A stretch of DNA of 11,042 nt from a virus (lineage: Duplodnaviria > Heunggongvirae > Uroviricota > Caudoviricetes): IMG/VR virus record IMGVR_UViG_2740892442_000010; one strand, given 5' to 3'. Of the stretch, positions 1 to 11,042 are shown one piece after another (within the stretch, counting starts at the first letter, position 1; each line of letters opens with the position of its first letter). The position numbers and the translations under genes were made by a program. The notes under the pieces were generated by a model that was given only the letters and a program-made list of their open reading frames with translations, was not told the DNA's origin and made no database searches.

Positions 1-282
1 ATGTCTGCCAGCACCCTAATTTCTATTGCAGAACAGGTAGAAGATGTTATGGGGGGCGAGCACTGGTCATTGCACGATCTGCGCAGAACGTGCAAAACAA
101 AAATGGCTGAACTTGGAGTAGCACCTCATGTTTCGGAGAAAATTCTCGGGCATAAGCTCACGGGGATGCTGGCTGTTTATGACCAGTATGACTACATCCC
201 CGAGCAGCAGGACGCAGCAGAATTATGGGCTAAGAAAATTCAAGAGTGTTCGGAAATCAATCCTTTATCTTTGCAAAACTGA
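1..282 (+). CDS. int: Tyrosine recombinase (phage integrase), C-terminal catalytic portion only; 5' end lies left of the window
   Basis: ORF runs from the first base to a stop at 280-282. Translation carries the C-terminal tyrosine-recombinase signature in order: HDLRRT (His-x-x-Arg), LGHK (His), VYDQYDY (candidate catalytic Tyr). The Met at position 1 is internal, not the true start. Confidence 0.8.
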   Translation: MSASTLISIAEQVEDVMGGEHWSLHDLRRTCKTKMAELGVAPHVSEKILGHKLTGMLAVYDQYDYIPEQQDAAELWAKKIQECSEINPLSLQN

Positions 283-469
283 ATAACTTCCTTGTAGCGA
301 AAGAGGCGCCGCCTTTCGGTGGGTGGATTTCTTCCACTTCCCGAGGGAATGGTGTCCCTGATTGCTCCCACTGTTTACGCTTCCGGTAAAAAGTAGTTCT
401 GGAGATACCACCAAGCATCTCCTGAACACGCTCGCGGTTTATTAGAATCGGCTGAATATTGATTGTCAT
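257..469 (-). CDS. Small HTH DNA-binding protein, AlpA/Xis-like (putative excisionase or transcriptional regulator)
   Basis: 70-aa ORF with GGAG 11 nt upstream of the ATG at 469. The segment LGGISRTTFYRKRK...FP resembles the AlpA/excisionase-type helix-turn-helix (L-x-G-[IL]-S-R-[ST]-T-[IF]-Y-R). The 3' end overlaps the integrase stop by 26 nt in convergent orientation, so the C-terminal residues are uncertain. Confidence 0.5.
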   Translation of the reverse strand: MTINIQPILINRERVQEMLGGISRTTFYRKRKQWEQSGTPFPREVEEIHPPKGGASFATRKLFSFAKIKD

Positions 470-590
470 TTGTATGGTTTCTCCATAAAGAAATAAACCG
501 TTCAGTGGCGGTTATTGTCGGTTGCGGTAGATCTGGCGATCTTGAGAAACTGTCAGGCCTCATCGAGTGTGAGGCTGTATGATTCCATAG

Positions 591-935
591 TTAGTCCTTG
601 CGTAGTTCTCTGATTCTTCTGTAAGTCTCTGGTGCTTTGTTTCCGTGTATCTTCATTTCAGACTTCAACAGAGCAACGAGAGAATCCCATTCGTTGAGGA
701 TGCCTTTGAATGCCGGAACGCGCTTTGCAACCTTGTCGAATGAATCTCTGATTTCTGGAATCTGCTCAACAAGTGCAACGCATCGTCGGAAATCGGCTGC
801 GTCATGTGGAGCGCCGAAGTGATGACCATAGATATTCTTTTTCAGTCCACATGCGATTGAGGCAAGAGTTGCGCTACTGATGCCGACATCGCCAGTCGTT
901 TGCCATTTCAAAATCTTCATAGCCAAATCTGACAT
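591..935 (-). CDS. Hypothetical protein, 114 aa from the ATG at 935 (six-frame ORF extends to 962)
   Basis: Minus-strand ORF. The internal ATG at 933-935 is preceded by GGAGA (complement of 942-946) at about 7 nt spacing; the upstream ATG at 960-962 sits inside the loop of a GC hairpin and has no RBS. No recognisable motif. Confidence 0.5.
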   Translation of the reverse strand: MSDLAMKILKWQTTGDVGISSATLASIACGLKKNIYGHHFGAPHDAADFRRCVALVEQIPEIRDSFDKVAKRVPAFKGILNEWDSLVALLKSEMKIHGNKAPETYRRIRELRKD

Positions 936-946
936 TTCTTGTCTCC

Positions 947-969
947 AATAAAAAACCGCCATCAGGCGG
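947..969 (-). terminator. Putative rho-independent terminator on the minus strand (short GC stem plus U-tract)
   Basis: Minus-strand read: CCGCC-TGAT-GGCGG (5-bp all-GC stem, 4-nt loop; + coordinates 956-969) followed immediately by TTTTTTATT (complement of 947-955). The stem is short, so strength is uncertain. Confidence 0.4.
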
Positions 970-1035
970 CTTAGTGTTCTTTCAGTTCTTCAATTCGAAT
1001 ATTGGTTACATTGTTTTCATATATGAATAAATAAT

Positions 1036-1215
1036 TTAGCTTTTTTCGTTGCTTCCGCGTTCTTTATTATTTTTACTAAACTCGTTTTTACCGCGCATTC
1101 CAAATGCGTCTTTAGAGTTGTTGTATCCGCAATCACTGCACACATAATCTCCAGACCATCCACGCCTTGTTTTTTCTTTTGCAATATTTCCAGAACCGCA
1201 TTTTGGACAAGACAT
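1036..1215 (-). CDS. Small zinc-ribbon protein (CxxC-x19-CxxC) with Lys/Asn-rich C-terminal tail
   Basis: ATG at 1213-1215 preceded by GGAGG with 7-nt spacer (minus strand ggaggtagtgatATG). Product MSCPKCGSGN...YVCSDCGYNN has two CxxC pairs typical of a zinc ribbon. The longer ORF to 1248 lacks an RBS. The overlapping ORF 1017..1256 in another frame is rejected. Confidence 0.6.
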   Translation of the reverse strand: MSCPKCGSGNIAKEKTRRGWSGDYVCSDCGYNNSKDAFGMRGKNEFSKNNKERGSNEKS

Positions 1216-1268
1216 ATCACTACCTCCAAAGCATGAGTGAGATGACAACGTAACATTGATTGGAAATT

Positions 1269-1282
1269 AACAATATATTGTT
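1269..1282. promoter_or_regulatory. Perfect 14-bp palindrome AACAATATATTGTT upstream of the zinc-ribbon gene (candidate operator)
   Basis: AACAATA/TATTGTT is exactly self-complementary. It lies in the 96-bp intergenic gap between the Ead stop (1312) and the zinc-ribbon start (1215), 54-67 nt upstream of that ATG. Confidence 0.3.
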
Positions 1283-1311
1283 GATGTAAAAGATATGTAT
1301 AAGATTCGCTA

Positions 1312-2217
1312 TCAGAGCGGCGGTTCTGGTAGCGGCATCCAGTGGGTTACATTGCGGCTCTGCGTTTCGAAGAACTCCTCACCATTGCGGACAACATCAA
1401 AAAACTCACCGTCTCGATATTGCGCATAAAGAACGAATGCGCCATCACATAAAATAATTACGTGCTGACCATCATCTGGCATTCGCTCACTACAGCTTAT
1501 CCAACCATCCGGAGTTACCGGATAGTTGCCAGACAGCGCATTCTGCAACCGTTCCAGCTTCACGTATTCCTGAACTCTGTTTCCGTCGCACGTCTGAAGC
1601 CATTGAGCAGCCTTTTGCGCATCAGTGTGAAAGGCACAAGTGCGACCGTCATCAAATTGCATTTTGTAGAGGTCAGCAACCTGTTCAAACTCCGTTTGTG
1701 GCAAGTTGTAAGTTTGGCTTACAGGTTTGGCACCATGAAGCATGGCGGCACGACAGGCGTTCCAGCCTCTCACCTCTGCAATAGCTGCAACCGCATCAAC
1801 CGCATACATGCTAAGAGGGTTCGGCATTGGTTTTTCTTCCGGTACTACTGGCGATTGCTGTTTAACTTCTAAATCAGCAATTCTGTCAACTACGGCATCT
1901 ACTGCATCTGAAAAACTGAAACAGTTACTCCATTCCGGCCTGTTCCCGGTTGCTGCAAAATACATATCAGCTAAAGCATACTCAGCATGGTCACGCTCGT
2001 TGATGAGTTGCTCTTCGCTTTTCTCCAGTTCAGCAATACGCTTACTCCCATCCGAGATAACGCCCTCGTAATACTCACGCTGCTCGTTGAGTTTTGATTC
2101 AAGTTCACCGAACTTACGGACAAGATATTCAGCGTTTGTTTCGTTAACCTTTAAATCTCGTGGGATGCATTTACCTTTCAGAAATCCATCCATCTCAATT
2201 AGTGACATTTGTTTCAT
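1312..2217 (-). CDS. Ead/Ea22-like early-region protein with C-terminal DUF551-type domain
   Basis: Long minus-strand ORF. The C-terminus ...[12 protein letters not shown] matches the characteristic DUF551 ending found in lambdoid-phage ea-region proteins. Start assigned to the ATG at 2215-2217, which overlaps the upstream stop as ATGA (translational coupling); the ORF track begins at a GTG at 2235. Confidence 0.7.
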
Positions 2218-2396
2218 TTCTTCCCACTCCGCCACATCGCATTCAGATATTTGTTTTGATTTACTGATGGAAAAGAATTTCTCTTAAGCAATTCCTCTCT
2301 CGATGGCATTGGCTTTACGCGTTGGCGAATAATCATTTCTGCCGGAAGAATGCCGGGATTGTATGCAAGTCCTCTCATGGTAAATTCCTCAGTCAT
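2214..2396 (-). CDS. Small hypothetical protein (about 60 aa), translationally coupled within the ea operon
   Basis: The ATG at 2394-2396 overlaps the stop of the upstream ORF (minus strand aATGacTGA), and its own stop overlaps the Ead start (ATGA). No recognisable motif; the start could instead be the next Met (MRGL...). Confidence 0.35.
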
Positions 2397-2685
2397 TACT
2401 GATAGCGCCATAGCGTGAGCGGTAATTACGCAGGCGCGGGTCGATATATTCAGGGAAGTGGGTATATGTGGCTTTGCGGAATGGTCGGATTGATGTCTGG
2501 TAAATTCGCTCTCGTTCTTCTTTCTCTGCAAGCCATATACAGTGGCGAAATTCCTTTTCCTCTTTCGTTTCCTGCGGTAGCGACATTATCCGATCGTAGT
2601 TTTTTCTGAATTTATCCAGCACCTCCGATACGGAATTGCCGGAACAGCGGCGCGGGTCATCCGCACCATACAGAGGCGCTGGCAT
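2389..2685 (-). CDS. Hypothetical protein, 98 aa
   Basis: Minus-strand ORF with AGGAGAA 4 nt upstream of the ATG at 2685, starting 16 nt after the stop of the exonuclease-like ORF. No recognisable domain. Confidence 0.5.
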
Positions 2686-2701
2686 GGTTTTCTCCTGTTG
2701 A

Positions 2702-3199
2702 TTATTTAGCTAACTTTTTCCAGATCGCTGAAACGTATTTGGCTTGGTGAATGGCATCATCAAGCGCGTTGTGGCGAGTTCCTTTGAATGGCATATCTCG
2801 CTTAGGGTCGAATCCTATTACCTTCCCAAGTTCGACGATTGTTCTTACGTCGCGGTCATTCCACCACTGCCACGGAACTGGCTGCCCTGTCAGCGAATAA
2901 CTGTTGCGGAGAATAACGCAGTCAAATGATGCTCCATTCCCCCAAACCTGAACGAATTTGTGGTTGGCGTTCTTTATGATGAATTCAGATAACCATGAAA
3001 GAGCCGTTGAAAGCTCTTGAGTGTTGCTGGTTAGCGATTTTCTGGCTTCTTCACTCTGTTCCATCCACCATAAAATCGTTGAAGCGTCAGGACGCGCCCG
3101 ATATCGCATTGATGACTCAAGCGAGATATTTACCGAGAACTCTTCTCCTGTTTCTCCGGTATATGAATTTACGCCATACAGCAAACAGCGTGAGTTCAT
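2702..3199 (-). CDS. DEDD-type 3'-5' exonuclease-like protein (DnaQ/Rv2179c-like motifs II and III present); probably 5'-truncated at the deletion junction
   Basis: Translation contains WGNGASFD (Exo II-like, FD) and [13 protein letters not shown] (Exo III-like, H-x4-D), but no N-terminal D-x-E motif is visible. None of the candidate starts (3199, 3109, 3064) has a convincing RBS. The first about 11 codons are simply the reverse complement of the terminase-like fragment that begins near 3165. Confidence 0.45.
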
Positions 3200-3761
3200 C
3201 GACGCCGGGCATGACTATCCAGAGCGATGTTTTATGGCTGGTAACCAGCTTGGTAAGTCATTTACTGGTGCTGCTGAAGTCGCGTTTCACCTTACCGGGC
3301 GTTACGCGAACAAGCAACTGGTGATGATGGGGCTGAAGAAACCAGAAACACCTGAAGAGATGGAGATGGTACAGCAGGCTCAACAGCAGCCGCAGCAGCC
3401 ATCAGCAGAGCAAATTCAGGCGCAGGGTATCCTTCTGCAAGGTCAGGCTGAATTGCTCAAGGCAGAGAACCAACAGGCGCAGATTCAGGTTGAAGCCGCC
3501 AAGGTTGAAGCCCAAAACCAACTCAACGCCGCGAAGATTGCAGAAATCTTCAACAATATGGACCTCGACAAGCAGGCAGAACTGCGTGAGTACCTCAAGC
3601 TAGTAGGTCAATTCCAGCAACAGCGCAGCAAAGATGCTCGTGCTAACGCTGAGCTGCTTCTTAAAGATGCAGACCAGACTCATTCACAACGCATGGATTT
3701 CGCGAATCTTATGCGTCAAGTTCAAATCCCCTCCGGCGGAGTAGCCGAGACACCTCAATAA
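3021..3761 (+). pseudogene. Deletion-scar chimera: terminase large subunit N-terminal fragment (about 3165-3305) fused in frame to portal protein C-terminal fragment (about 3305-3761), P22-like
   Basis: Residues [47 protein letters not shown] carry a P-loop ([AG]-x4-G-K-[ST]: AGNQLGKS) typical of a terminase ATPase N-terminus. The sequence then switches abruptly to a Gln/Ala/Glu-rich helical segment (QQAQQQPQQ...[40 protein letters not shown]...) that I recall as the C-terminal barrel of the P22 portal gp1. The P22 order is 3-2-1-8-5 and scaffold/coat genes follow directly. An out-of-frame ATG at 3163-3165 (tatATGAATTTACG) suggests the native start was ATG-GAA-TTT (MEFTPY) with a 1-bp loss. 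Confidence 0.6.
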
Positions 3762-3774
3762 GAGAGAGTTAATC

Positions 3775-4686
3775 ATGGACCAAACCACCGACATTCAGGC
3801 TTCTGAAGAATTAACCCTGCCCGGCAATCATGCAGCGGCATCTGCTGATGGCTTAGTTGTCGATAATGCCAACGACAACGCAGGTCAGGAAGAAGGCTTC
3901 GAGATTGTCCTGAAAGACGATGAGAAACCAAAACAAGACCCGGCAACTAATGCTGAATTTGCCCGTCGCCGCATCGAACGCAAACGCCAGCGTGAGCTTG
4001 AGCAGCAGATGGAAGCGGTTAAGCGTGGAGAGTTGCCGGAGCACCTGCGGGTGAACCCTGAGTTACCAAAACAACCAGACCCTAACGATTATCTTTCCGA
4101 AGATGCACTGGCTAAGTACGACTATGACCAGAGCCGCGCACTGGCTGCCTTCCAGCAGGCAAACAGTGAATGGCAGATCAAGGCTATGGACGCACGAAGC
4201 CAGGCTGTCGCCGAGCAGGGTCGCAAAACTCAGGAGTTCACCCAGCAATCAGCGCAATACGTCGAGGCAGCCCGTAAGCACTACGACGCAGCGGAAAAGC
4301 TCAATATCCCTGACTATCAGGAGAAAGAGGATGCATTCATGCAACTGGTGCCGCCAGCAGTCGGTGCCGACATCATGCGCCTCTTCCCGGAGAAATCCGC
4401 TGCTCTCATGTATCACCTTGGTGCTAATCCTGAAAAAACACGCCAGTTGCTGGCGATGGACGGGCAATCCGCGCTGATTGAACTCACTCGACTGTCAGAA
4501 CGTTTAACTCTCAAGCCTCGAGCCAAGCCTGTTTCAGAAGCCCCGTTACCTGATGAACCAATTCAGGGACACGCTGTTGCTGCAAATATCTCTGCGATTG
4601 AAAAGCAGATGGAAGCGGCAGCAAACAAAAGGGATGTAGAGACGTACCGCAAGCTCAAGGCGCAACTGAATAAAGGAATTCGATAA
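3775..4686 (+). CDS. Phage scaffolding protein (P22 gp8-like), apparently intact, 303 aa
   Basis: RBS-like AGAGAGAG about 7 nt upstream of the ATG at 3775. Same length as P22 gp8, and the N-terminal region ([29 protein letters not shown]) and C-terminal basic coat-binding region ([15 protein letters not shown]) match my recollection of that protein. Stop overlaps the coat start as TAATG. Confidence 0.85.
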
Positions 4687-5732
4687 TGGCATTAAATGAA
4701 GGTCAACTGGTCACGTATGCTCTGGATGAAATCATCGAAACCGTCCAGAATCTGACGCCAATGGCGTCCAAAGTGACAAAATACACCCCTCCGGCAGAAT
4801 CCATGCGGCGTTCAAGCAACACCGTGTGGATGCCTGTTGAGCAGGAAGCGCCAACCCAGACTGGCTGGGATTTAACTGGCAACGCAACTGGGATTCTGGA
4901 ACTCTCCGTGAAATGCAACATGGGCGATCCGGATAACGATTTCTTCGAGCTTCGTGCAGATGACCTGCGTGATGAGCGTTCTTACCGTCGCCGCATCCAG
5001 GCATCCGCTAAAAAACTGGCGAATAACATTGAGTCAGCAATTGCCAAACAGGCAACTGAAATGGGCTCACTTGTTGTTCACGATACCCGCGCAATTGGTC
5101 CATCTACTGGCCTGTCTGGCTGGGATTTTGTGTCTGATGCAGAGCGCCTGATGTTCTCCCGCGAACTCAACCGCGACATGGGCATCAGTTACTTCCTGAA
5201 CCCTGACGATTACCGCAAAGCAGGCCGCAACCTGGTAGATGGTGACATCTTCGGTCGCGTTCCTGAAGAAGCGTATCGCAACGGTACTATTCAGCGTCAG
5301 ATTGCTGGCTTTGATGAAATTCTTCGCTCACCGAAACTTCCGGCAGTTACCAAGTCAACCGCTACTGGTGTAACTGTTTCTGGTGCGCAGAAGTTTAAGC
5401 CGCAGGCATACACCCTTGATACCGATGGTAACAAAGAGAACGTCGACAACCGTGTTGCAACGGTGACCGTATCCTCCACCACCGGATTTAAGCGCGGCGA
5501 CAAAATCAGTTTCACTGGTGTGAAATTCCTGTCTCAGATGGCGAAGAACGTGCTAACTGATGATGCGACTTTCTCAATCACCCGTGTGATCGATGGTACT
5601 CACATCGAAATCACGCCGAAACCGATTGCACTGGATGACGCGTCACTGACAAAAGAAGAGAAGGCTTACGCTAACGTAAACACCTCTCTTGCTGATACCA
5701 CTCCGGTAAACGTTCTGAACACCAGCCTATGA
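4686..5732 (+). CDS. Phage major coat protein (P22 gp5-like), 3'-truncated at 348 aa versus about 430 aa; likely nonfunctional remnant
   Basis: N-terminus [19 protein letters not shown]... and internal segments ([68 protein letters not shown]) match my recollection of the P22 coat protein. The ORF ends after ...[20 protein letters not shown], well short of full length, and the downstream P22 genes (4, 10, 26, 14, 7, 20, 16) are absent. Confidence 0.8.
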
Positions 5733-5823
5733 AAGAGCGATAAATAACGCTGCGAATGCCATCAGACCGCTGTTTGCTACTGAGGCAACACAGCAGTAAC
5801 GTATGGGAAATTGGATTCAATCG

Positions 5824-6213
5824 CTAACATTTTCTTTTTACTTTTCCAACAAAAGCTTTGGTTGAATCCATATTTCTATAACCGGAAATGGTTTTTGACA
5901 TTAAAACTGTTCCAGTAGGATGTATTACCCATGAGTCGATAACGCGTTGAGTTTCGCCATTCGCGCCGATTCCTATGATGGAGTTTTTAGACAATGCTTT
6001 GTAAGCCATGCCGCCCGCATCTGTCCCAGAATATGTGATGCTGGCATCTTCACCGTTTGTCTTAATGATGAATGTTCCACTAAAACCATCTTCTTCCGGA
6101 TGGAAATTATTTCGTTCTGAATAGCTTATTCCGCGCATATCTCCAACGACCCAGCACTCTGCTGTAGCCCCAAAAGATATGAATAAGAACATAGCAGTAA
6201 GAAATTGCTTCAC
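5824..6213 (-). CDS. Exported protein of unknown function with N-terminal signal peptide (moron-like cargo)
   Basis: Strong RBS AAGGAGG with 5-nt spacer before a GTG start at 6211-6213. N-terminus MKQFLTAMFLFISFGATA/ECW has a hydrophobic core and an A-x-A-type cleavage site. No recognisable catalytic motif. Divergent from the adjacent lipoprotein gene. Confidence 0.6.
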   Translation of the reverse strand: MKQFLTAMFLFISFGATAECWVVGDMRGISYSERNNFHPEEDGFSGTFIIKTNGEDASITYSGTDAGGMAYKALSKNSIIGIGANGETQRVIDSWVIHPTGTVLMSKTISGYRNMDSTKAFVGKVKRKC

Positions 6214-6330
6214 GCCAACCTCCTTAGTTTTGAGCAGGATACCATGAAAAAAGTAAACATCTTTTGCCTACTTCACATTTGAATGGTTTGTCATTAGGAT
6301 GTTTCCGGTTTTTTAAATATGGAAATTGAT

Positions 6331-6750
6331 ATGAAGAGGATTATTGGCGTCGTTGCTGGCGCTATATTGTTATCTGGGTGCGCAACTATTGTTGGTGACG
6401 AAACGCAGCTTGTGCAAGTGAACAGCAATCCTTCCGGTGCGAGCTTTAAGGTAAAAGACGAATCAGGCGTGATTGTTGCGCAAGGTAAGACCCCACAAGG
6501 AGTAACTCTTGCCAAGTCAGATGGTAGTTATTTTGGCAAAAAGAGCTACCAGATCACTATGGAAAAGGATGGGTACGAACCAGTTACCCTGCCAATCAAA
6601 GCCAATGCTAATGGCTGGTATATTGGTGGAAACCTTGTGTTTGGTGGGTTAATTGGTTGGCTTGCTGTAGATCCTTTTAATGGTGGGATGTATACCTTGA
6701 AGCCAAAAGAGGCAAACGCATCTCTTATACCATCAACAAAGCAAGACTAA
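6331..6750 (+). CDS. Lipoprotein (lipobox LLSGC) with PEGA-like beta domain and Gly-rich C-terminal segment
   Basis: MKRIIGVVAGAILLSG-C is a canonical signal II peptide with the lipobox Cys. PSGASFKVKDESGVIVAQGKTPQGVTL resembles the PEGA motif; the C-terminal segment GWYIGGNLVFGGLIGWLAVDPFNGGMY is Gly-zipper-like. An upstream in-frame ATG at 6319 is a possible alternative start but has no RBS. Followed by a strong terminator. Confidence 0.7.
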   Translation: MKRIIGVVAGAILLSGCATIVGDETQLVQVNSNPSGASFKVKDESGVIVAQGKTPQGVTLAKSDGSYFGKKSYQITMEKDGYEPVTLPIKANANGWYIGGNLVFGGLIGWLAVDPFNGGMYTLKPKEANASLIPSTKQD

Positions 6751-6758
6751 TAAATAGG

Positions 6759-6781
6759 ACCCACCTTCAGGTGGGTTTTTT
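6759..6781 (+). terminator. Rho-independent terminator (likely bidirectional) between the lipoprotein gene and mnt
   Basis: ACCCACC-TTCA-GGTGGGT (7-bp stem, 4-nt loop) followed by TTTTTT on the + strand, 9 nt after the lipoprotein stop. The last three codons of the convergent mnt ORF lie inside the 3' half of the stem. Confidence 0.65.
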
Positions 6782-7018
6782 GTACAAATCCTTCAGCGTA
6801 TCAAACACCATCTTCCTAACAAGTTCGGACTGCTCATCAGCGATGCGTTCTGCATCGTCTCGATAGTCTGAAATTTTGGATGGCTTTGATACAGCATCAG
6901 TCACTATCTGAACTAATTCTGAATTAAGAGAGCGGCCATTGGATTTGGCTCGCTGTTTTAGTTTTTCCTTTAATTCGTAAAGTAGCCGCAGATTAAATTG
7001 CGGGTCATCTCTTCCCAT
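6767..7018 (-). CDS. mnt: Mnt repressor (ribbon-helix-helix, Arc/MetJ family), P22 Mnt homolog, 83 aa
   Basis: Translation MGRDDPQFNLRLLYELKEKLKQRAKSNGRSLNSELVQIV...DAERIADEQSELVRKMVFDTLKDLYKKPT is near-colinear with P22 Mnt as I recall it (MARDDPHFNFRMPMEVREKLKFRAEANGRSMNSELLQIV...KKMVFDTLKDLYKKTT), with the same length and the RHH beta-strand FNLR motif. GAGG lies 8 nt upstream of the ATG at 7018. Confidence 0.85.
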   Translation of the reverse strand: MGRDDPQFNLRLLYELKEKLKQRAKSNGRSLNSELVQIVTDAVSKPSKISDYRDDAERIADEQSELVRKMVFDTLKDLYKKPT

Positions 7019-7081
7019 TCTTGATGCCTCGCTTTTGTGAGTGGAGCGGCATCTTATTATCTGCTGGTTGCATCCTCAATA

Positions 7082-7096
7082 AGACCACTGTGGTCT
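7082..7096. promoter_or_regulatory. Perfect 15-bp palindrome AGACCAC-T-GTGGTCT, candidate Mnt operator
   Basis: Exact inverted repeat 64 bp upstream of the mnt start codon. It resembles in style the symmetric P22 mnt operator half-sites (GTCCAC/GTGGAC type, recalled). A plausible leftward promoter for mnt (minus strand TTGAGG-17 nt-TAAGAT, + coordinates 7051-7079) sits immediately beside it. Confidence 0.5.
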
Positions 7097-7290
7097 CTTT
7101 ATTTGATTAATAATGCATCACTGCGGCCACGCTGCAGCGATTCCTTGTATCTGGAGCAAATTAAATGACAGATATTATAAATAGGAATTGTTATTTAATA
7201 ATATTTGAAAATGAAAATCATGGACGATAGGAATAAAAGTAGTACTTGTTATTTTTAAGTGACGCATTAAACGCATAAAGCATATGTCTG

Positions 7291-7319
7291 TTGATCAAGA
7301 TTCTTGCTTGTTGTAAAAT
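7291..7319 (+). promoter_or_regulatory. Candidate sigma70-type promoter upstream of the tailspike gene
   Basis: TTGATC (7291-7296), 17-nt spacer, TAAAAT (7314-7319); would give a leader of about 118 nt to the tailspike ATG. The region is AT-rich, so chance matches are likely. Confidence 0.25.
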
Positions 7320-7443
7320 AATTGTTTTGTTCATGTTGCATAGTTTTAAAGTGAATAGAAGATTATTTTTCAAAACAATTGCATCTTTGTCTGCAGTCAT
7401 TCCGTTTTCTTCAATATCTAAATTTTCAAACAGGATGACTAAT

Positions 7444-10176
7444 ATGCCTGATATAACTCCAAATGTTGTAATTGGGATGCCTTCTCAACTCTTCACTATG
7501 GCTCGTTCTTTTAAAGCCGTAGCTAATGGAAAAATTTATATCGGTAAAATTGACACTGACCCTGTAAATCCTGAAAACCAGATTCAGGTTTATGTAGAGA
7601 ATGAAGATGGTTCTCACGTTCCTGTTTCGCAACCAATCGTTATCAATGCTGCTGGATATCCTGTATATAACGGACAGATTGCCAAATTCGTTACTGTGAA
7701 AGGACACTCTATGGCTGTGTACGATGCTTATGGTACGCAGCAGTTCTATTTTCCGAATGTGCTGAAGTATGACCCGGATCAGTTACGGCAGCAATTAGAA
7801 GATCCTGATGGTGCTAAAAAATACCCTGAATTACAGATTGCACGATGGCGGGATGATAAAGACGTTCGCGGGTGGGGGGCGGATGACTCTGGGAATAGAG
7901 ATTCAACACAGGCTTTTCTTGACGCCGCATCTAGCGCAGGAAATAGTGGTTTGGTTCATGTGCCTTCTGGTGAGTTTATAGTTGATGCATCGAAAATAGA
8001 TATTTCACGCTTCTCCGGTGATGGTGTTCTAATCAGTAATGGTGTTCGCATTTCTGTTAATCCGCCGATGCAAAGTTTCTCCATTGGACAAAGAAAACTT
8101 GCGACCCTGAATTTTGGTGATGATATCAATGCGCCAACTATATATGCGAATGCACAAAATGCATTGCAGGGAATAGCTTGTGTAAGGCATGAAGGTATTG
8201 AGAAGGTTTTTATCACTCAACAGGTTGGAGGTTCTAACTGGGGAACGGACACCCTCACAAGGATCAGTGAGTGGCACTATACAAGCGATGGTTCAACTCT
8301 TTATGTTGTGACATTTACAGAGCCATTGCCTCTTGGTCACGGTTCAGATCTTTCTGCCACAATAGAGAACGGTGAACTATATCTGTTTACAACAACAATT
8401 GCTGAGACTGGTTCCTCTCTAGGAGGGAAGGGGTATTCAAAGACAAAATGGAAAGGGGCATCAACATCTGCTGAAGATATAACTCATTACCGAGTATTTG
8501 GTGAGCCGGGTGATAATAATCTGATTAACCTTGCGCAGCGGGCAAGTATTTGTGTATCTAATGATGGGCGATATGTCATATTAATTGCGACATCAAACGC
8601 TGGGACTGGCCGCTTTTTATACGTATATGATCGCAAAGAAGTGGAATCTTCTTCTAACCCAATGAAAGTTAGACCGATTAATGGTCCTGTTCCACTTGTC
8701 CGTGGTAAAGGTCAGTATGGTGCAACACTTCAGGGTATTACATCAGATAGCAGATATATTTACACAATTTGGGGTGGCGTTCCTGCAAGATGCGTAAGGA
8801 CAGTACAGATTTATGATATGGGTGGTACGCTAATACGTTCATTTCCTGTATCACTTGCCGCATCACTTTATACAGAGACTCAGTTAAATGGTTCTGACTC
8901 TAAAATCGGAGTTCCGGTTAGCTTTGAGCCTGAAGGGCTGGCAATAAGAGGTGATGAACTTGTCTGTGGTGCTATGGATGTATGGAAAAGCGCAGGGGAT
9001 GTTGTAAGCCATCGTGGTAAAAATTGGGTAAGTATTGTTACTGGTGATAACAAGGGAAATCTTCCGACAAACAGGTCTTATTGGTTAAAAACATCGCTTG
9101 CAGCGACAAGTGGTGAATGGGATTCAGGCGCAACATATAAATCAGGTGATTATACTCGCAGAAATAAGCATCTGTTTGGAATAGCAAACCTGTCTGATAT
9201 TCTTGGCAACCATCCAGTGCATGGTGCAGAATCCGATCCGTATACCGGAACCGCGCATCAATATTATGCTGGAACTGATATCGCCTTTAACCGTGAGCAC
9301 GGTTCATTTACTATTGCGATATTTGACGAAGCCATTGGAGAGTATACCAAATCCCTCGAGTTGAATTATGGAAATAACCTTAACCTGTTTGATACAGATT
9401 ACGGACATGACAATAATTCATGGGTAAGTACGAAAGCAGTATTCGACTCAAACTTTCGAGGTATGCAGTTCCGTTCTAAAGATGGGAATACTGCGGGTGG
9501 TGCTTATATTGATATCCATGCTGCTGATTGTCCATCTGCGGCTGGTGAGTTGATACTTGCCTCTACAGATGGAGGTGTCGTCAGACTTAAGCAGGGGAAT
9601 GTAACAGTATTTTCTGCGACTAAAGATACTACATCGACATGGGCGACGACGACATTAAGGCCAACAACTGATAACCAGGTATCACTTGGAAGGTCCGTTA
9701 ACCGCTTTTCTCAGGTCTACGCAGGGACTGCAACTATAAATACATCTGATGCAACAGAGAAAACGGAAGTCAGAACTCTTTCCGATAAAGAGCAGGCGGT
9801 TGGGTTAGCTCTTGTTGATGAAATTGGTTTTTATCAATGGCTTGATAGTGTAAAAAATAAGGGAGCTGATGCCAGACTTCATGCCGGACTTACGGTGCAA
9901 CGGGCAATGGAAATATTCAGAGAGAATGGACTTGATCCATTTAAATACGGAGCGATCTGCTATGACAGATGGGATGCATATACAGATACAGATCCAGCTG
10001 TTTATGATGATGAAGGTAACCTTGTTCGTGAGGCTATAACTATTACGCATGAAGCAGGAGAACGCTATGCATTCAGAAATGATGAATTACAGTATCTAAT
10101 GATTGCTGCATTAGGTATACGTCAGAAAAATATTATAAAGAGGATTGAAGAACTGGAAAATAAGCTTGCAAATTAA
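7444..10176 (+). CDS. Phage tailspike protein, mosaic: P22-type N-terminal head-binding domain, divergent receptor-binding/enzymatic body, C-terminal intramolecular-chaperone-like (peptidase S74-type) domain; 910 aa
   Basis: Start set at the ATG at 7444, with AGGA 8 nt upstream; the ORF track's upstream extension from 7291 is AT-rich and non-protein-like. The first about 115 aa ([59 protein letters not shown]...NVLKYDPDQ) closely match the P22 gp9 head-binding domain ([34 protein letters not shown]..., recalled), and similarity ends right after KYDPDQ. The C-terminal about 143 aa from Ser at 9745-9747 ([10 protein letters not shown]...) fit the S-D-x-x-x-K pattern of autocleaving chaperone domains. 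Confidence 0.85.
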
Positions 10177-10258
10177 CTATTTTACTGACACCTTAAGTCT
10201 CAATATTACCAATTGAAGTCTATGTTTTTTGGGTGTTTTAGTAATTTGTTATAGATAA

Positions 10259-10297
10259 ATGTCACTCCTTAAAGATATCGCATTCTAGGAGTGACAT
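10259..10297. other. Perfect 11-bp inverted repeat (ATGTCACTCCT / AGGAGTGACAT) with 17-nt loop in the convergent intergenic region
   Basis: Arms at 10259-10269 and 10287-10297 are exactly complementary, lying between the tailspike stop (10176) and the acetyltransferase stop (10332). No adjacent U-tract on either strand, so it is not a canonical intrinsic terminator. Confidence 0.4.
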
Positions 10298-10331
10298 GTG
10301 ATTTACTTGTCGTTCAATATATGGTGTGTTT

Positions 10332-11042
10332 TTATTGTTTTTCTTTTGTTAGGTTCCAATATTCACTTGTGGTTTTTATGGAGTCCTTATTAGGCTTTAC
10401 ATAAGGTTTATGTATGGAGAGATGAGGTCTTTCCCAGGCAATGTCTTTTTTTATTACTCTTGCTGGAACTCCTGCTGCAATAGAGTTATTTGGGACGTGT
10501 CCTTTAACAACAGCTGCATAGCCAATAACACTACCACTTTCGATTTCTGCACCACCAAGTATTGCCGCTCGGCGGCCAACCCAGACATGACTTCCAATAT
10601 AAATAGATTTTGGCATATTTATACGTTCACCTGTTACTACACTAAAAATAGGGTGGGAGTCATCAGTTTTAACTTCATTTCCACTTGAAAACATGCAGTC
10701 ATCGCCAATAATTATGCTTGAGTTTTCTACAGCAGAAATCATACCTTTACCAGTGCAAGTGAAATCAGAGCCTATTTTTATGGAGGAATTCTCACCCACT
10801 CTTATATGGGCTTGTATACCTTTGTTTGCGATATGGCATGGGCCAATTTCAAAATACCCATTGTTGCAGTCAAAATATATCTCAAAATATTTTAATGATG
10901 CATCTTTATGAATGATAAGTTTATTATTAGATCCTCTAAACTGAATTAGTTTGACGTCACAACTACCTTCGTACTGGATCTCATTACCCATTTCATCAGA
11001 ATACTTCTCTGCTTTTGTTAAAACAACTTTTCTAATTTTCAT
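10332..11042 (-). CDS. Hexapeptide-repeat (left-handed beta-helix) acetyltransferase; start coincides with the window edge, so the 5' end may extend beyond
   Basis: The C-terminal half IGSHVWVGRRAAILGGAEIESGSVIGYAAVVKGHVPNNSIAAGVPARVIKK shows the [LIV]-G-x4 hexapeptide periodicity and the AAGVPARVI ending typical of the LacA/Maa/NodL/WbbJ-like O-acetyltransferase family. Visibly AT-rich coding sequence. The ATG at 11040-11042 is the last codon in the window. Confidence 0.75.
   Translation of the reverse strand: MKIRKVVLTKAEKYSDEMGNEIQYEGSCDVKLIQFRGSNNKLIIHKDASLKYFEIYFDCNNGYFEIGPCHIANKGIQAHIRVGENSSIKIGSDFTCTGKGMISAVENSSIIIGDDCMFSSGNEVKTDDSHPIFSVVTGERINMPKSIYIGSHVWVGRRAAILGGAEIESGSVIGYAAVVKGHVPNNSIAAGVPARVIKKDIAWERPHLSIHKPYVKPNKDSIKTTSEYWNLTKEKQ

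Follow-up and report, generated by a model that had tools for sequence, protein, structure and literature searches.

What does a P22-like prophage carry as its last gene before the attachment site? Between its tailspike gene and att, P22 has gtr, and in the same place CUS-3 has neuO. The question is raised again by IMG/VR virus record IMGVR_UViG_2740892442_000010 (Caudoviricetes), a stretch of 11,042 nucleotides, here called the window, whose right-hand end is taken up by an open reading frame (ORF) that faces the tailspike gene across a 155-bp spacer. The initial annotation, made from the sequence alone, described this ORF as a hexapeptide-repeat acetyltransferase gene, convergent with the tailspike gene, and proposed that it O-acetylates a surface polysaccharide upon lysogeny. 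The computational analysis presented here bears out the arrangement and supports the proposal, with the likely target narrowed to a capsule instead of the O antigen: the product is probably a NeuO-like lysogenic-conversion O-acetyltransferase for the K117 glycerol-phosphate capsule of Escherichia coli that lacks a repeat-based phase switch.

The gene is complete. Its 236 codons run to the very edge of the window (Table 1), and the RefSeq coding sequence (CDS), found in five genomes, specifies exactly the same 236 amino acids. Because that CDS is identical, an in-frame stop lies 11 codons 5' of the ATG and homologues begin at the same position in the family alignment, the true start is this ATG, at the very edge of the window; the earlier suggestion that the start might lie further out does not hold. 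A tandem-repeat search in and near the CDS finds none, and in particular no heptanucleotide repeat of the NeuO type, as the initial annotation had observed. The gene is also as AT-rich as was claimed, with a GC content of 36.1%; the tailspike gene has 42.4%, and the P22-type genes for scaffold and coat reach 51.7%.

The acetyltransferase is an enzyme of the left-handed beta-helix (LbH) superfamily and is closest to the capsule-modifying branch represented by NeuO and OatWY. The Pfam Hexapep profile matches with an E-value of 5.8e-7 (29.4 bits against a cut-off of 27). A phmmer search of the PDB ranks NeuO (3jqy; 2.7e-32) and OatWY (2wlc; 5e-25) first, followed by the maltose and galactoside acetyltransferases Maa and LacA at 6e-14 or weaker. 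The AlphaFold model of the monomer, built with 67 homologues, is predicted with high confidence (predicted local distance difference test, pLDDT, 96.5) and forms a left-handed beta-helix of short beta-strand coils. Foldseek returns the same order, with NeuO at 2e-11 (template modelling score, TM, 0.65-0.71) and OatWY at 2e-10 (TM 0.64-0.72); Maa and LacA stand at about 1e-5, the next match after NeuO and OatWY being at 2e-5, and all of the top PDB matches are LbH enzymes. Normalised to the query, TM scores are 0.36-0.45 for Maa, LacA and WbbJ versus 0.65-0.67 for NeuO. The same three enzymes share the superfamily fold and the His/Trp catalytic arrangement and match the C-terminal coils, yet all fall short of the NCBIfam equivalog cut-offs: Maa scores 56.4 against 314 bits, LacA 50.7 against 347 and WbbJ 54.2 against 243. 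Judged by these profile scores and by the model, the acetyltransferase is not a member of Maa, LacA or WbbJ.

The active site gives further evidence of kinship. In LbH acetyltransferases the catalytic His protrudes from the helix on a loop, facing a conserved Trp. Six active-site residues are common to NeuO and OatWY (Met134, His147, Trp171, Arg174, Trp220 and Arg222 in NeuO numbering; PMC3046976), and all six have counterparts in the alignment: Met117, His130, Trp154, Arg157, Trp203 and Arg205. His130, Trp154 and Met117 are invariant across the 67 family members. The predicted catalytic pair consists of His130, within the motif DDSHPIF and equivalent to NeuO His147, and Trp154, within HVWVGRR and equivalent to NeuO Trp171. 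The product is thus most likely a soluble, acetyl-CoA-dependent LbH O-acetyltransferase of the NeuO/OatWY clade, an activity predicted from sequence and model. The relationship is nevertheless distant, with an overall identity to NeuO of about 36-38% (38.5% for CUS-3 neuO), and members of its family end in a conserved C-terminal tail (about residues 207-236, Trp229 being nearly invariant) that is missing from NeuO.

That the gene belongs to a prophage follows from its position. The window matches E. coli TUM10008 at 100% identity (NZ_CP135658.1:491526-502568), where the prophage lies between espL1 and thrS. In all of the 5426 complete E. coli genomes compared, host homology resumes at a point 235 bp past the ATG, so the acetyltransferase gene is the last gene inside attR. 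The resumption point coincides with one arm of an imperfect direct repeat of ~110 bp (86-96% identity), which duplicates the sequence immediately upstream of thrS and brackets the gene; thrS itself lies 372 bp past the window end. The phage inserts in the thrS promoter/leader region and supplies a replacement copy of that sequence. Extension to the right therefore places the gene in a slot equivalent to those of P22 gtr and CUS-3 neuO, as had been proposed. The gene occurs in five of the 5426 genomes (E4, MS 16-3, TUM10008, EC24 and GMF065) and is absent from the other 5421, every one of which has the thrS flank; this speaks against a conserved host operon present in strains without the prophage. 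The prophage is seemingly complete in E4 and MS 16-3 and has suffered different, independent deletions in TUM10008, EC24 and GMF065. All that is left of it in GMF065 is a 5'-truncated tailspike gene and the acetyltransferase ORF, yet the ORF is intact in all five. An identical protein is on record on 358 contigs, and at each of the nine sites inspected it has thrS on one side and the tailspike gene on the other. Its location inside the att sites, its absence where the prophage is absent and its atypical base composition are best explained if it is a prophage lysogenic-conversion ('moron') gene.

The hosts point to the probable substrate. MS 16-3 has a group-2 kps locus at pheV, in which the serotype-specific region 2 encodes four proteins (Table 1) that match type K117 of the kTYPr catalogue, a previously unknown type, gene for gene (PMC13171606). 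The assignment is based on gene lengths and domain coordinates (131, 369 and 701 amino acids, Capsule_synth at 493-637, and the only GT8 entry); the five genome accessions are not in the kTYPr text, so the type was matched via the locus and not by direct lookup. The gene content of region 2 points to a teichoic-acid-like, glycerol-phosphate polymer. By megablast, the full region 2 of MS 16-3 is found in exactly five of the complete genomes, the same five that carry the acetyltransferase. Put the other way round, all five complete K117 genomes carry the acetyltransferase gene, which is retained even in the prophage stub. These hosts are not a single clone, as their thrS flanks represent three backgrounds that are 1.3-1.5% apart. 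Their kps region 2 contains no neu genes, and the acceptor is therefore not polysialic acid. Their O-antigen loci are of types O4, O23 and O7; since the O types differ, the surface polysaccharide that they share is the capsule and not the O antigen. The E. coli K117 locus has no acetyltransferase of its own.

Related capsule loci deserve a brief comparison. SE15 and SCU-102 have first three region-2 genes that are 94-96% identical to those of K117, and neither strain has the tailspike or the acetyltransferase; in SE15 the GT8 gene is replaced by genes for a tetratricopeptide-repeat (TPR) protein and a 555-aa glycosyltransferase (kTYPr K122). The TagD-like gene alone is 98-99% identical in 55+ other genomes, and in the kTYPr table the K24 cytidylyltransferase is 97% identical to that of K122, a pattern that indicates modular exchange within glycerol-phosphate capsule loci. 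Two other K types were considered as targets and rejected. The K2 (K2ab) region 2 of CFT073 has a different gene set (a 1266-aa TagF-like polymerase, an XcbB/CpsF-family protein and others), and K2 has a candidate acetyltransferase within its own locus (PMC13171606). The idea that the gene supplies the 'missing' acetyltransferase of K18, whose locus is identical to that of K22 (PMC13171606), finds no support, as the host locus encodes a 131-aa cytidylyltransferase of the TagD (glycerol-3-phosphate) type and not of the IspD/TarI type.

The argument for the substrate rests mainly on the gene neighbourhoods of homologues. The acetyltransferase is part of a family of full-length homologues, N- and C-terminal extensions included, that are 44-64% identical, closer than NeuO, and come from Acidovorax, Pusillimonas, Alcaligenaceae, Pseudomonas and Arthrobacter (P0007, P0008, P0011, P0014, P0022 and others). 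Nine genomic contexts were examined. Glyphos_transf (TagF-like glycerophosphotransferase) genes are present in five, and four of these five also contain a TagD-like cytidylyltransferase gene. One is an orthologous ATP-binding cassette (ABC)-transporter capsule locus of Acidovorax, in which a homologue with 59% identity comes directly after three genes (TagD-like, TagF-like, Capsule_synth) that are collinear with region 2 of E. coli and 72%, 44% and 39% identical to its genes, respectively. In Pusillimonas the homologue also lies in a capsule locus with TagD/TagF-like genes, in Pseudomonas and a metagenomic contig homologues are found in flagellar glycosylation islands with such genes, and in Arthrobacter within a teichoic-type locus. 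Most homologues are chromosomal locus genes, while the E. coli copy, like those of L007/L008, L009 and L015, has moved to a prophage. Three other prophages carry a homologue, and in two of the three it adjoins a homologous tailspike gene with propeller and S74 domains; in an Aeromonas P2-like prophage the homologue lies between the repressor and integrase genes. Because the K117 locus has no acetyltransferase of its own and the Acidovorax locus does, these arrangements are most simply read as the prophage contributing in trans a function that Acidovorax encodes in cis within its locus.

The adjoining tailspike gene and the acetyltransferase gene make up a module, and the tailspike is compatible with the same polymer. 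The protein has a P22 head-binding domain at its N-terminus, a five-bladed propeller in the centre as its receptor domain, and an S74 intramolecular chaperone at its C-terminus. The program-made ORF begins at a TTG codon well upstream of the ATG at which both the head-binding domain and the RefSeq CDS begin (Table 1); the 51 intervening codons are very AT-rich and probably non-coding. The central domain is modelled with a pLDDT of 71 overall and of 80-90 over most of the propeller. The fold is a propeller of the phi11-RBP type, and the neck appendage protein gp12 of Bacillus phage GA1 is 27.7% identical to this domain; a comparison with endosialidase catalytic domains gives no sequence match. 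Gp45 is a binder of glycosylated wall teichoic acid (PMC4901313, PMC4876445). The likeness of the predicted propeller to phage proteins that bind teichoic acid fits a teichoic-acid-like capsule as the tailspike receptor, and the protein may be either a cleaver or a mere binder of it. The receptor domain is found in the same five complete genomes as the acetyltransferase, even in a sensitive blastn mode ('distant'), and the two genes are 99.2-100% conserved among these hosts.

How such an enzyme could act is suggested by its relatives. Group-2 capsules are polymerised on the cytoplasmic face of the membrane before export by KpsMT, so that a soluble enzyme reaches its substrate, as NeuO does. 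The acetyltransferase would likewise work in the cytoplasm on a group-2 (ABC-transporter-dependent) polymer prior to export, but this polymer would be the K117-type teichoic-acid-like capsule and not polysialic acid. By analogy, His130 would activate an acceptor hydroxyl to attack acetyl-CoA bound at the interface between subunits of a trimer, which in the NeuO/OatWY clade is a tilted, funnel-shaped homotrimer. The neighbouring tailspike probably recognises the same capsule, in which case O-acetylation would alter the phage's own receptor, leading to superinfection exclusion, as well as the receptor for related phages and the antigenicity of the capsule.

The resemblance to the two characterised systems is close in some respects and not in others. 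Like neuO on CUS-3 of E. coli K1 (PDB 3JQY), which provides the best match in sequence and structure, the gene lies in a P22-like prophage, flanked on one side by a capsule-specific tailspike gene that includes an S74 domain and on the other by the int/att end, in a host with a group-2 kps capsule. However, it is convergent with the tailspike gene, whereas neuO and its tailspike gene are co-directional; it lacks the heptanucleotide array, annotated as 19 copies of AAGACTC (poly-psi domain) in the CUS-3 record; the prophage is inserted at thrS and not at the CUS-3 attachment site; the host has no neu genes; and the tailspike is a phi11-RBP-type propeller, not an endosialidase. OatWY of Neisseria meningitidis serogroups W and Y (PDB 2WLC-2WLG), the second-best match, shares the His/Trp pair, the Met/Arg/Trp/Arg set and an acceptor that is an ABC-transporter-dependent capsule, but is encoded in the capsule locus and not by a phage, and acts on the sialic acid of a hexose-sialic acid polymer.

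Several observations weigh against K117 acetylation in a lysogen. The co-occurrence with K117 could stem from the host range of the tailspike alone and need not identify the substrate of the acetyltransferase, and the independent host backgrounds among the complete genomes number three. The homologues in flagellar glycosylation islands indicate that the acceptors of the family are not restricted to capsules. The pairing with the tailspike is not obligatory: a hidden acetyltransferase gene was looked for in two Mu-like prophages that have a homologous tailspike, and none turned up. Upstream of the gene there is no convincing sigma-70 promoter or Shine-Dalgarno sequence, and scans for consensus promoters and terminators near it gave nothing above the shuffled expectation, so that expression in the lysogen can be presumed at best. 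The terminator scan also missed a perfect hairpin in the spacer between the convergent genes (Table 1), as it has no T-run; this hairpin is a candidate bidirectional terminator.

Against this background, four other explanations have to be considered. The gene might be an inert remnant, which once served the phage and is now unexpressed or non-functional in decayed prophages, and the heavy deletion of the window prophage agrees with this as much as the missing promoter and Shine-Dalgarno consensus does. We consider it unlikely given that the ORF, with its catalytic residues, has survived independent deletions of most phage genes and is intact in every complete genome that has it, that the identical protein recurs on hundreds of contigs with the same thrS-side layout wherever this was read, and that the GMF065 allele differs by two synonymous codon changes and a single non-synonymous one. 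Modification in the cytoplasm of the O antigen or another lipopolysaccharide-linked glycan, in the manner of WbbJ, would amount to classical serotype conversion, and it is what the usual habits of P22-family phages, which target and modify O antigens, the gtr slot and the weak WbbJ match would lead one to expect. It is quite unlikely here, and the O antigen was rejected as the target, as the O loci of the hosts differ while the tailspike and acetyltransferase are almost invariant. In addition, the WbbJ score is far under its cut-off, the K117 locus is the only surface-polysaccharide locus found to be both common and exclusive to the five hosts, and the homologues reside in ABC-transporter capsule loci and not in O-antigen clusters.

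The absence of a coding repeat array raises the question of whether the gene could be a phase-variable contingency gene that is switched by two upstream C tracts. Across 14 loci the 372-bp spacer has indels in these two tracts only, which sit upstream of the ATG by 83 and 126 nt: most loci have C7/C7, E4 and L023 have C8, and GMF065 has C6/C6. However, tract length tracks lineage, E4 and L023 having similar, though not identical, gene content beside the tailspike gene and GMF065 a divergent allele, which suggests inheritance; 11 of the 14 loci are identical, runs of 6-8 nt are rather short to slip efficiently, assemblies often get homopolymer lengths wrong and no promoter elements flank the tracts. 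Phase variation by this route is not supported, and we regard it as very unlikely. Least credible is a cytoplasmic acetyltransferase for small molecules (a sugar, xenobiotic or antibiotic) of the Maa/LacA/Vat/CatB type, with no effect on the surface. All four families appear among the weaker NCBIfam and PDB matches, but these are far below the family cut-offs and confined to the C-terminal coils, and NeuO and OatWY outrank them by 11-18 orders of magnitude in sequence E-value, with a lead of about 6 orders in Foldseek E-value. The residues specific to NeuO and OatWY (the Met, the second Trp and the Arg) are conserved, and the homologues are found in glycopolymer loci or next to tailspikes. The nearest characterised relative is therefore NeuO and not a detoxifying enzyme, and modification of the K117 capsule remains the preferred explanation.

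A broader scenario can be entertained, although we lean against it: the tailspike and the acetyltransferase might form a portable two-gene module for glycerol-phosphate surface polymers that moves between phage backbones in Gamma- and Betaproteobacteria, with the acetyltransferase derived from Acidovorax-like capsule loci and the O-acetylation of K117 set entirely by the prophage and fixed by domestication.

The window as a whole covers the right-hand part of a P22-like prophage in decay. Besides the tailspike and acetyltransferase genes, it contains a 3' fragment of the integrase gene (split by IS1), early genes, a deletion fusion of terminase and portal, the gene for the scaffold, a coat gene that is truncated, two genes for small secreted proteins, and mnt. 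The coat gene ends at residue 348 of about 430, and the genes for gp4, gp10, gp26, gp14, gp7, gp20, gp16 and ant are missing. The genes listed for the early region (Table 1) are ordinary lambdoid/P22 early-left content. The two small secreted-protein genes (phrog_2651 and phrog_6823) lie between the structural genes and mnt; because they are also present in MS 16-3 and kept in decayed prophages, they are candidates for further morons, acting for example in superinfection exclusion.

Table 1. Features of the window, of the surrounding locus L003 and of the MS 16-3 capsule region 2.
Feature	Coordinates	Strand	Remarks
Decayed P22-like prophage, right-hand part	1..11042		
Early-region genes	2702-3199, 2389-2685, 1312-2235	minus	include Rv2179c-like 3'-5' exonuclease, anti-RecBCD (Abc2-type) and DUF551/Ead-Ea22-like genes
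ORF, apparent fusion by deletion	3021-3761		terminase N-terminal fragment (Pfam Terminase_6N, aa 70-116) and Q/E-rich portal-like C-terminus
phrog_2651 gene	5824-6213	minus	129-aa protein, signal-peptide-like N-terminus
phrog_6823 gene	6319-6750	plus	143-aa lipoprotein-like protein, weak PEGA-domain match
Upstream extension of program-made tailspike ORF	7291-7443		begins with TTG at 7291; 51 codons
Tailspike gene	7444..10176	plus	910 aa; ATG at 7444; Pfam Head_binding 2e-65, Peptidase_S74
Tailspike central receptor domain	about 7801-9200		
Hairpin	10259..10297		perfect 11-bp stem, 17-nt loop; in 155-bp spacer between convergent genes
O-acetyltransferase CDS, NeuO/OatWY-clade, hexapeptide-repeat	10332..11042	minus	236 aa, complete; ATG at 11042, stop at 10332; RefSeq WP_001313877.1
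attL	L003 4009-4117		~110-bp repeat
Decayed remnant (integrase gene split by IS1)	1-5732, and L003 4298-6282		L003 part adjoins the window on its left
Two homopolymeric G tracts (C on the gene strand)	L003 17120-17127, 17163-17170		perfect TATAAT beside one, on the thrS-directed strand
attR	L003 17278-17387		~110-bp repeat; past right end of window
TagD-like cytidylyltransferase	MS 16-3 region 2		131 aa
TagF-like glycerophosphotransferase	MS 16-3 region 2		369 aa
Capsule_synth protein	MS 16-3 region 2		701 aa; Capsule_synth at 493-637
GT8 glycosyltransferase	MS 16-3 region 2		

In the literature searched on NeuO-like and P22-like prophage acetyltransferases, no earlier description of this gene was found, and NeuO on CUS-3 is the only phage-encoded O-acetyltransferase found there for an ABC-transporter-dependent capsule of E. 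coli. NeuO has a bearing on resistance to phages, on recognition by the immune system and on virulence (PMC3046976, PMC13001214). The acetyltransferase described here most likely adds a second example in E. coli of capsule modification driven by a phage. If this is true, the gene would provide a genetic handle on K117, a newly catalogued and chemically uncharacterised K type. The tailspike is a candidate for depolymerising or binding a glycerol-phosphate capsule, with possible use in typing or phage-based targeting. In silico K-typing that considers the kps locus only would miss serologically relevant modifications of this kind; the authors of kTYPr themselves flag modifications encoded outside the kps locus as a blind spot for K18/K22 and K54/K96 (PMC13171606). 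More generally, since a distantly related enzyme would here act on a chemically different capsule, phage-borne capsule acetylation would be a general strategy and not a peculiarity of K1.

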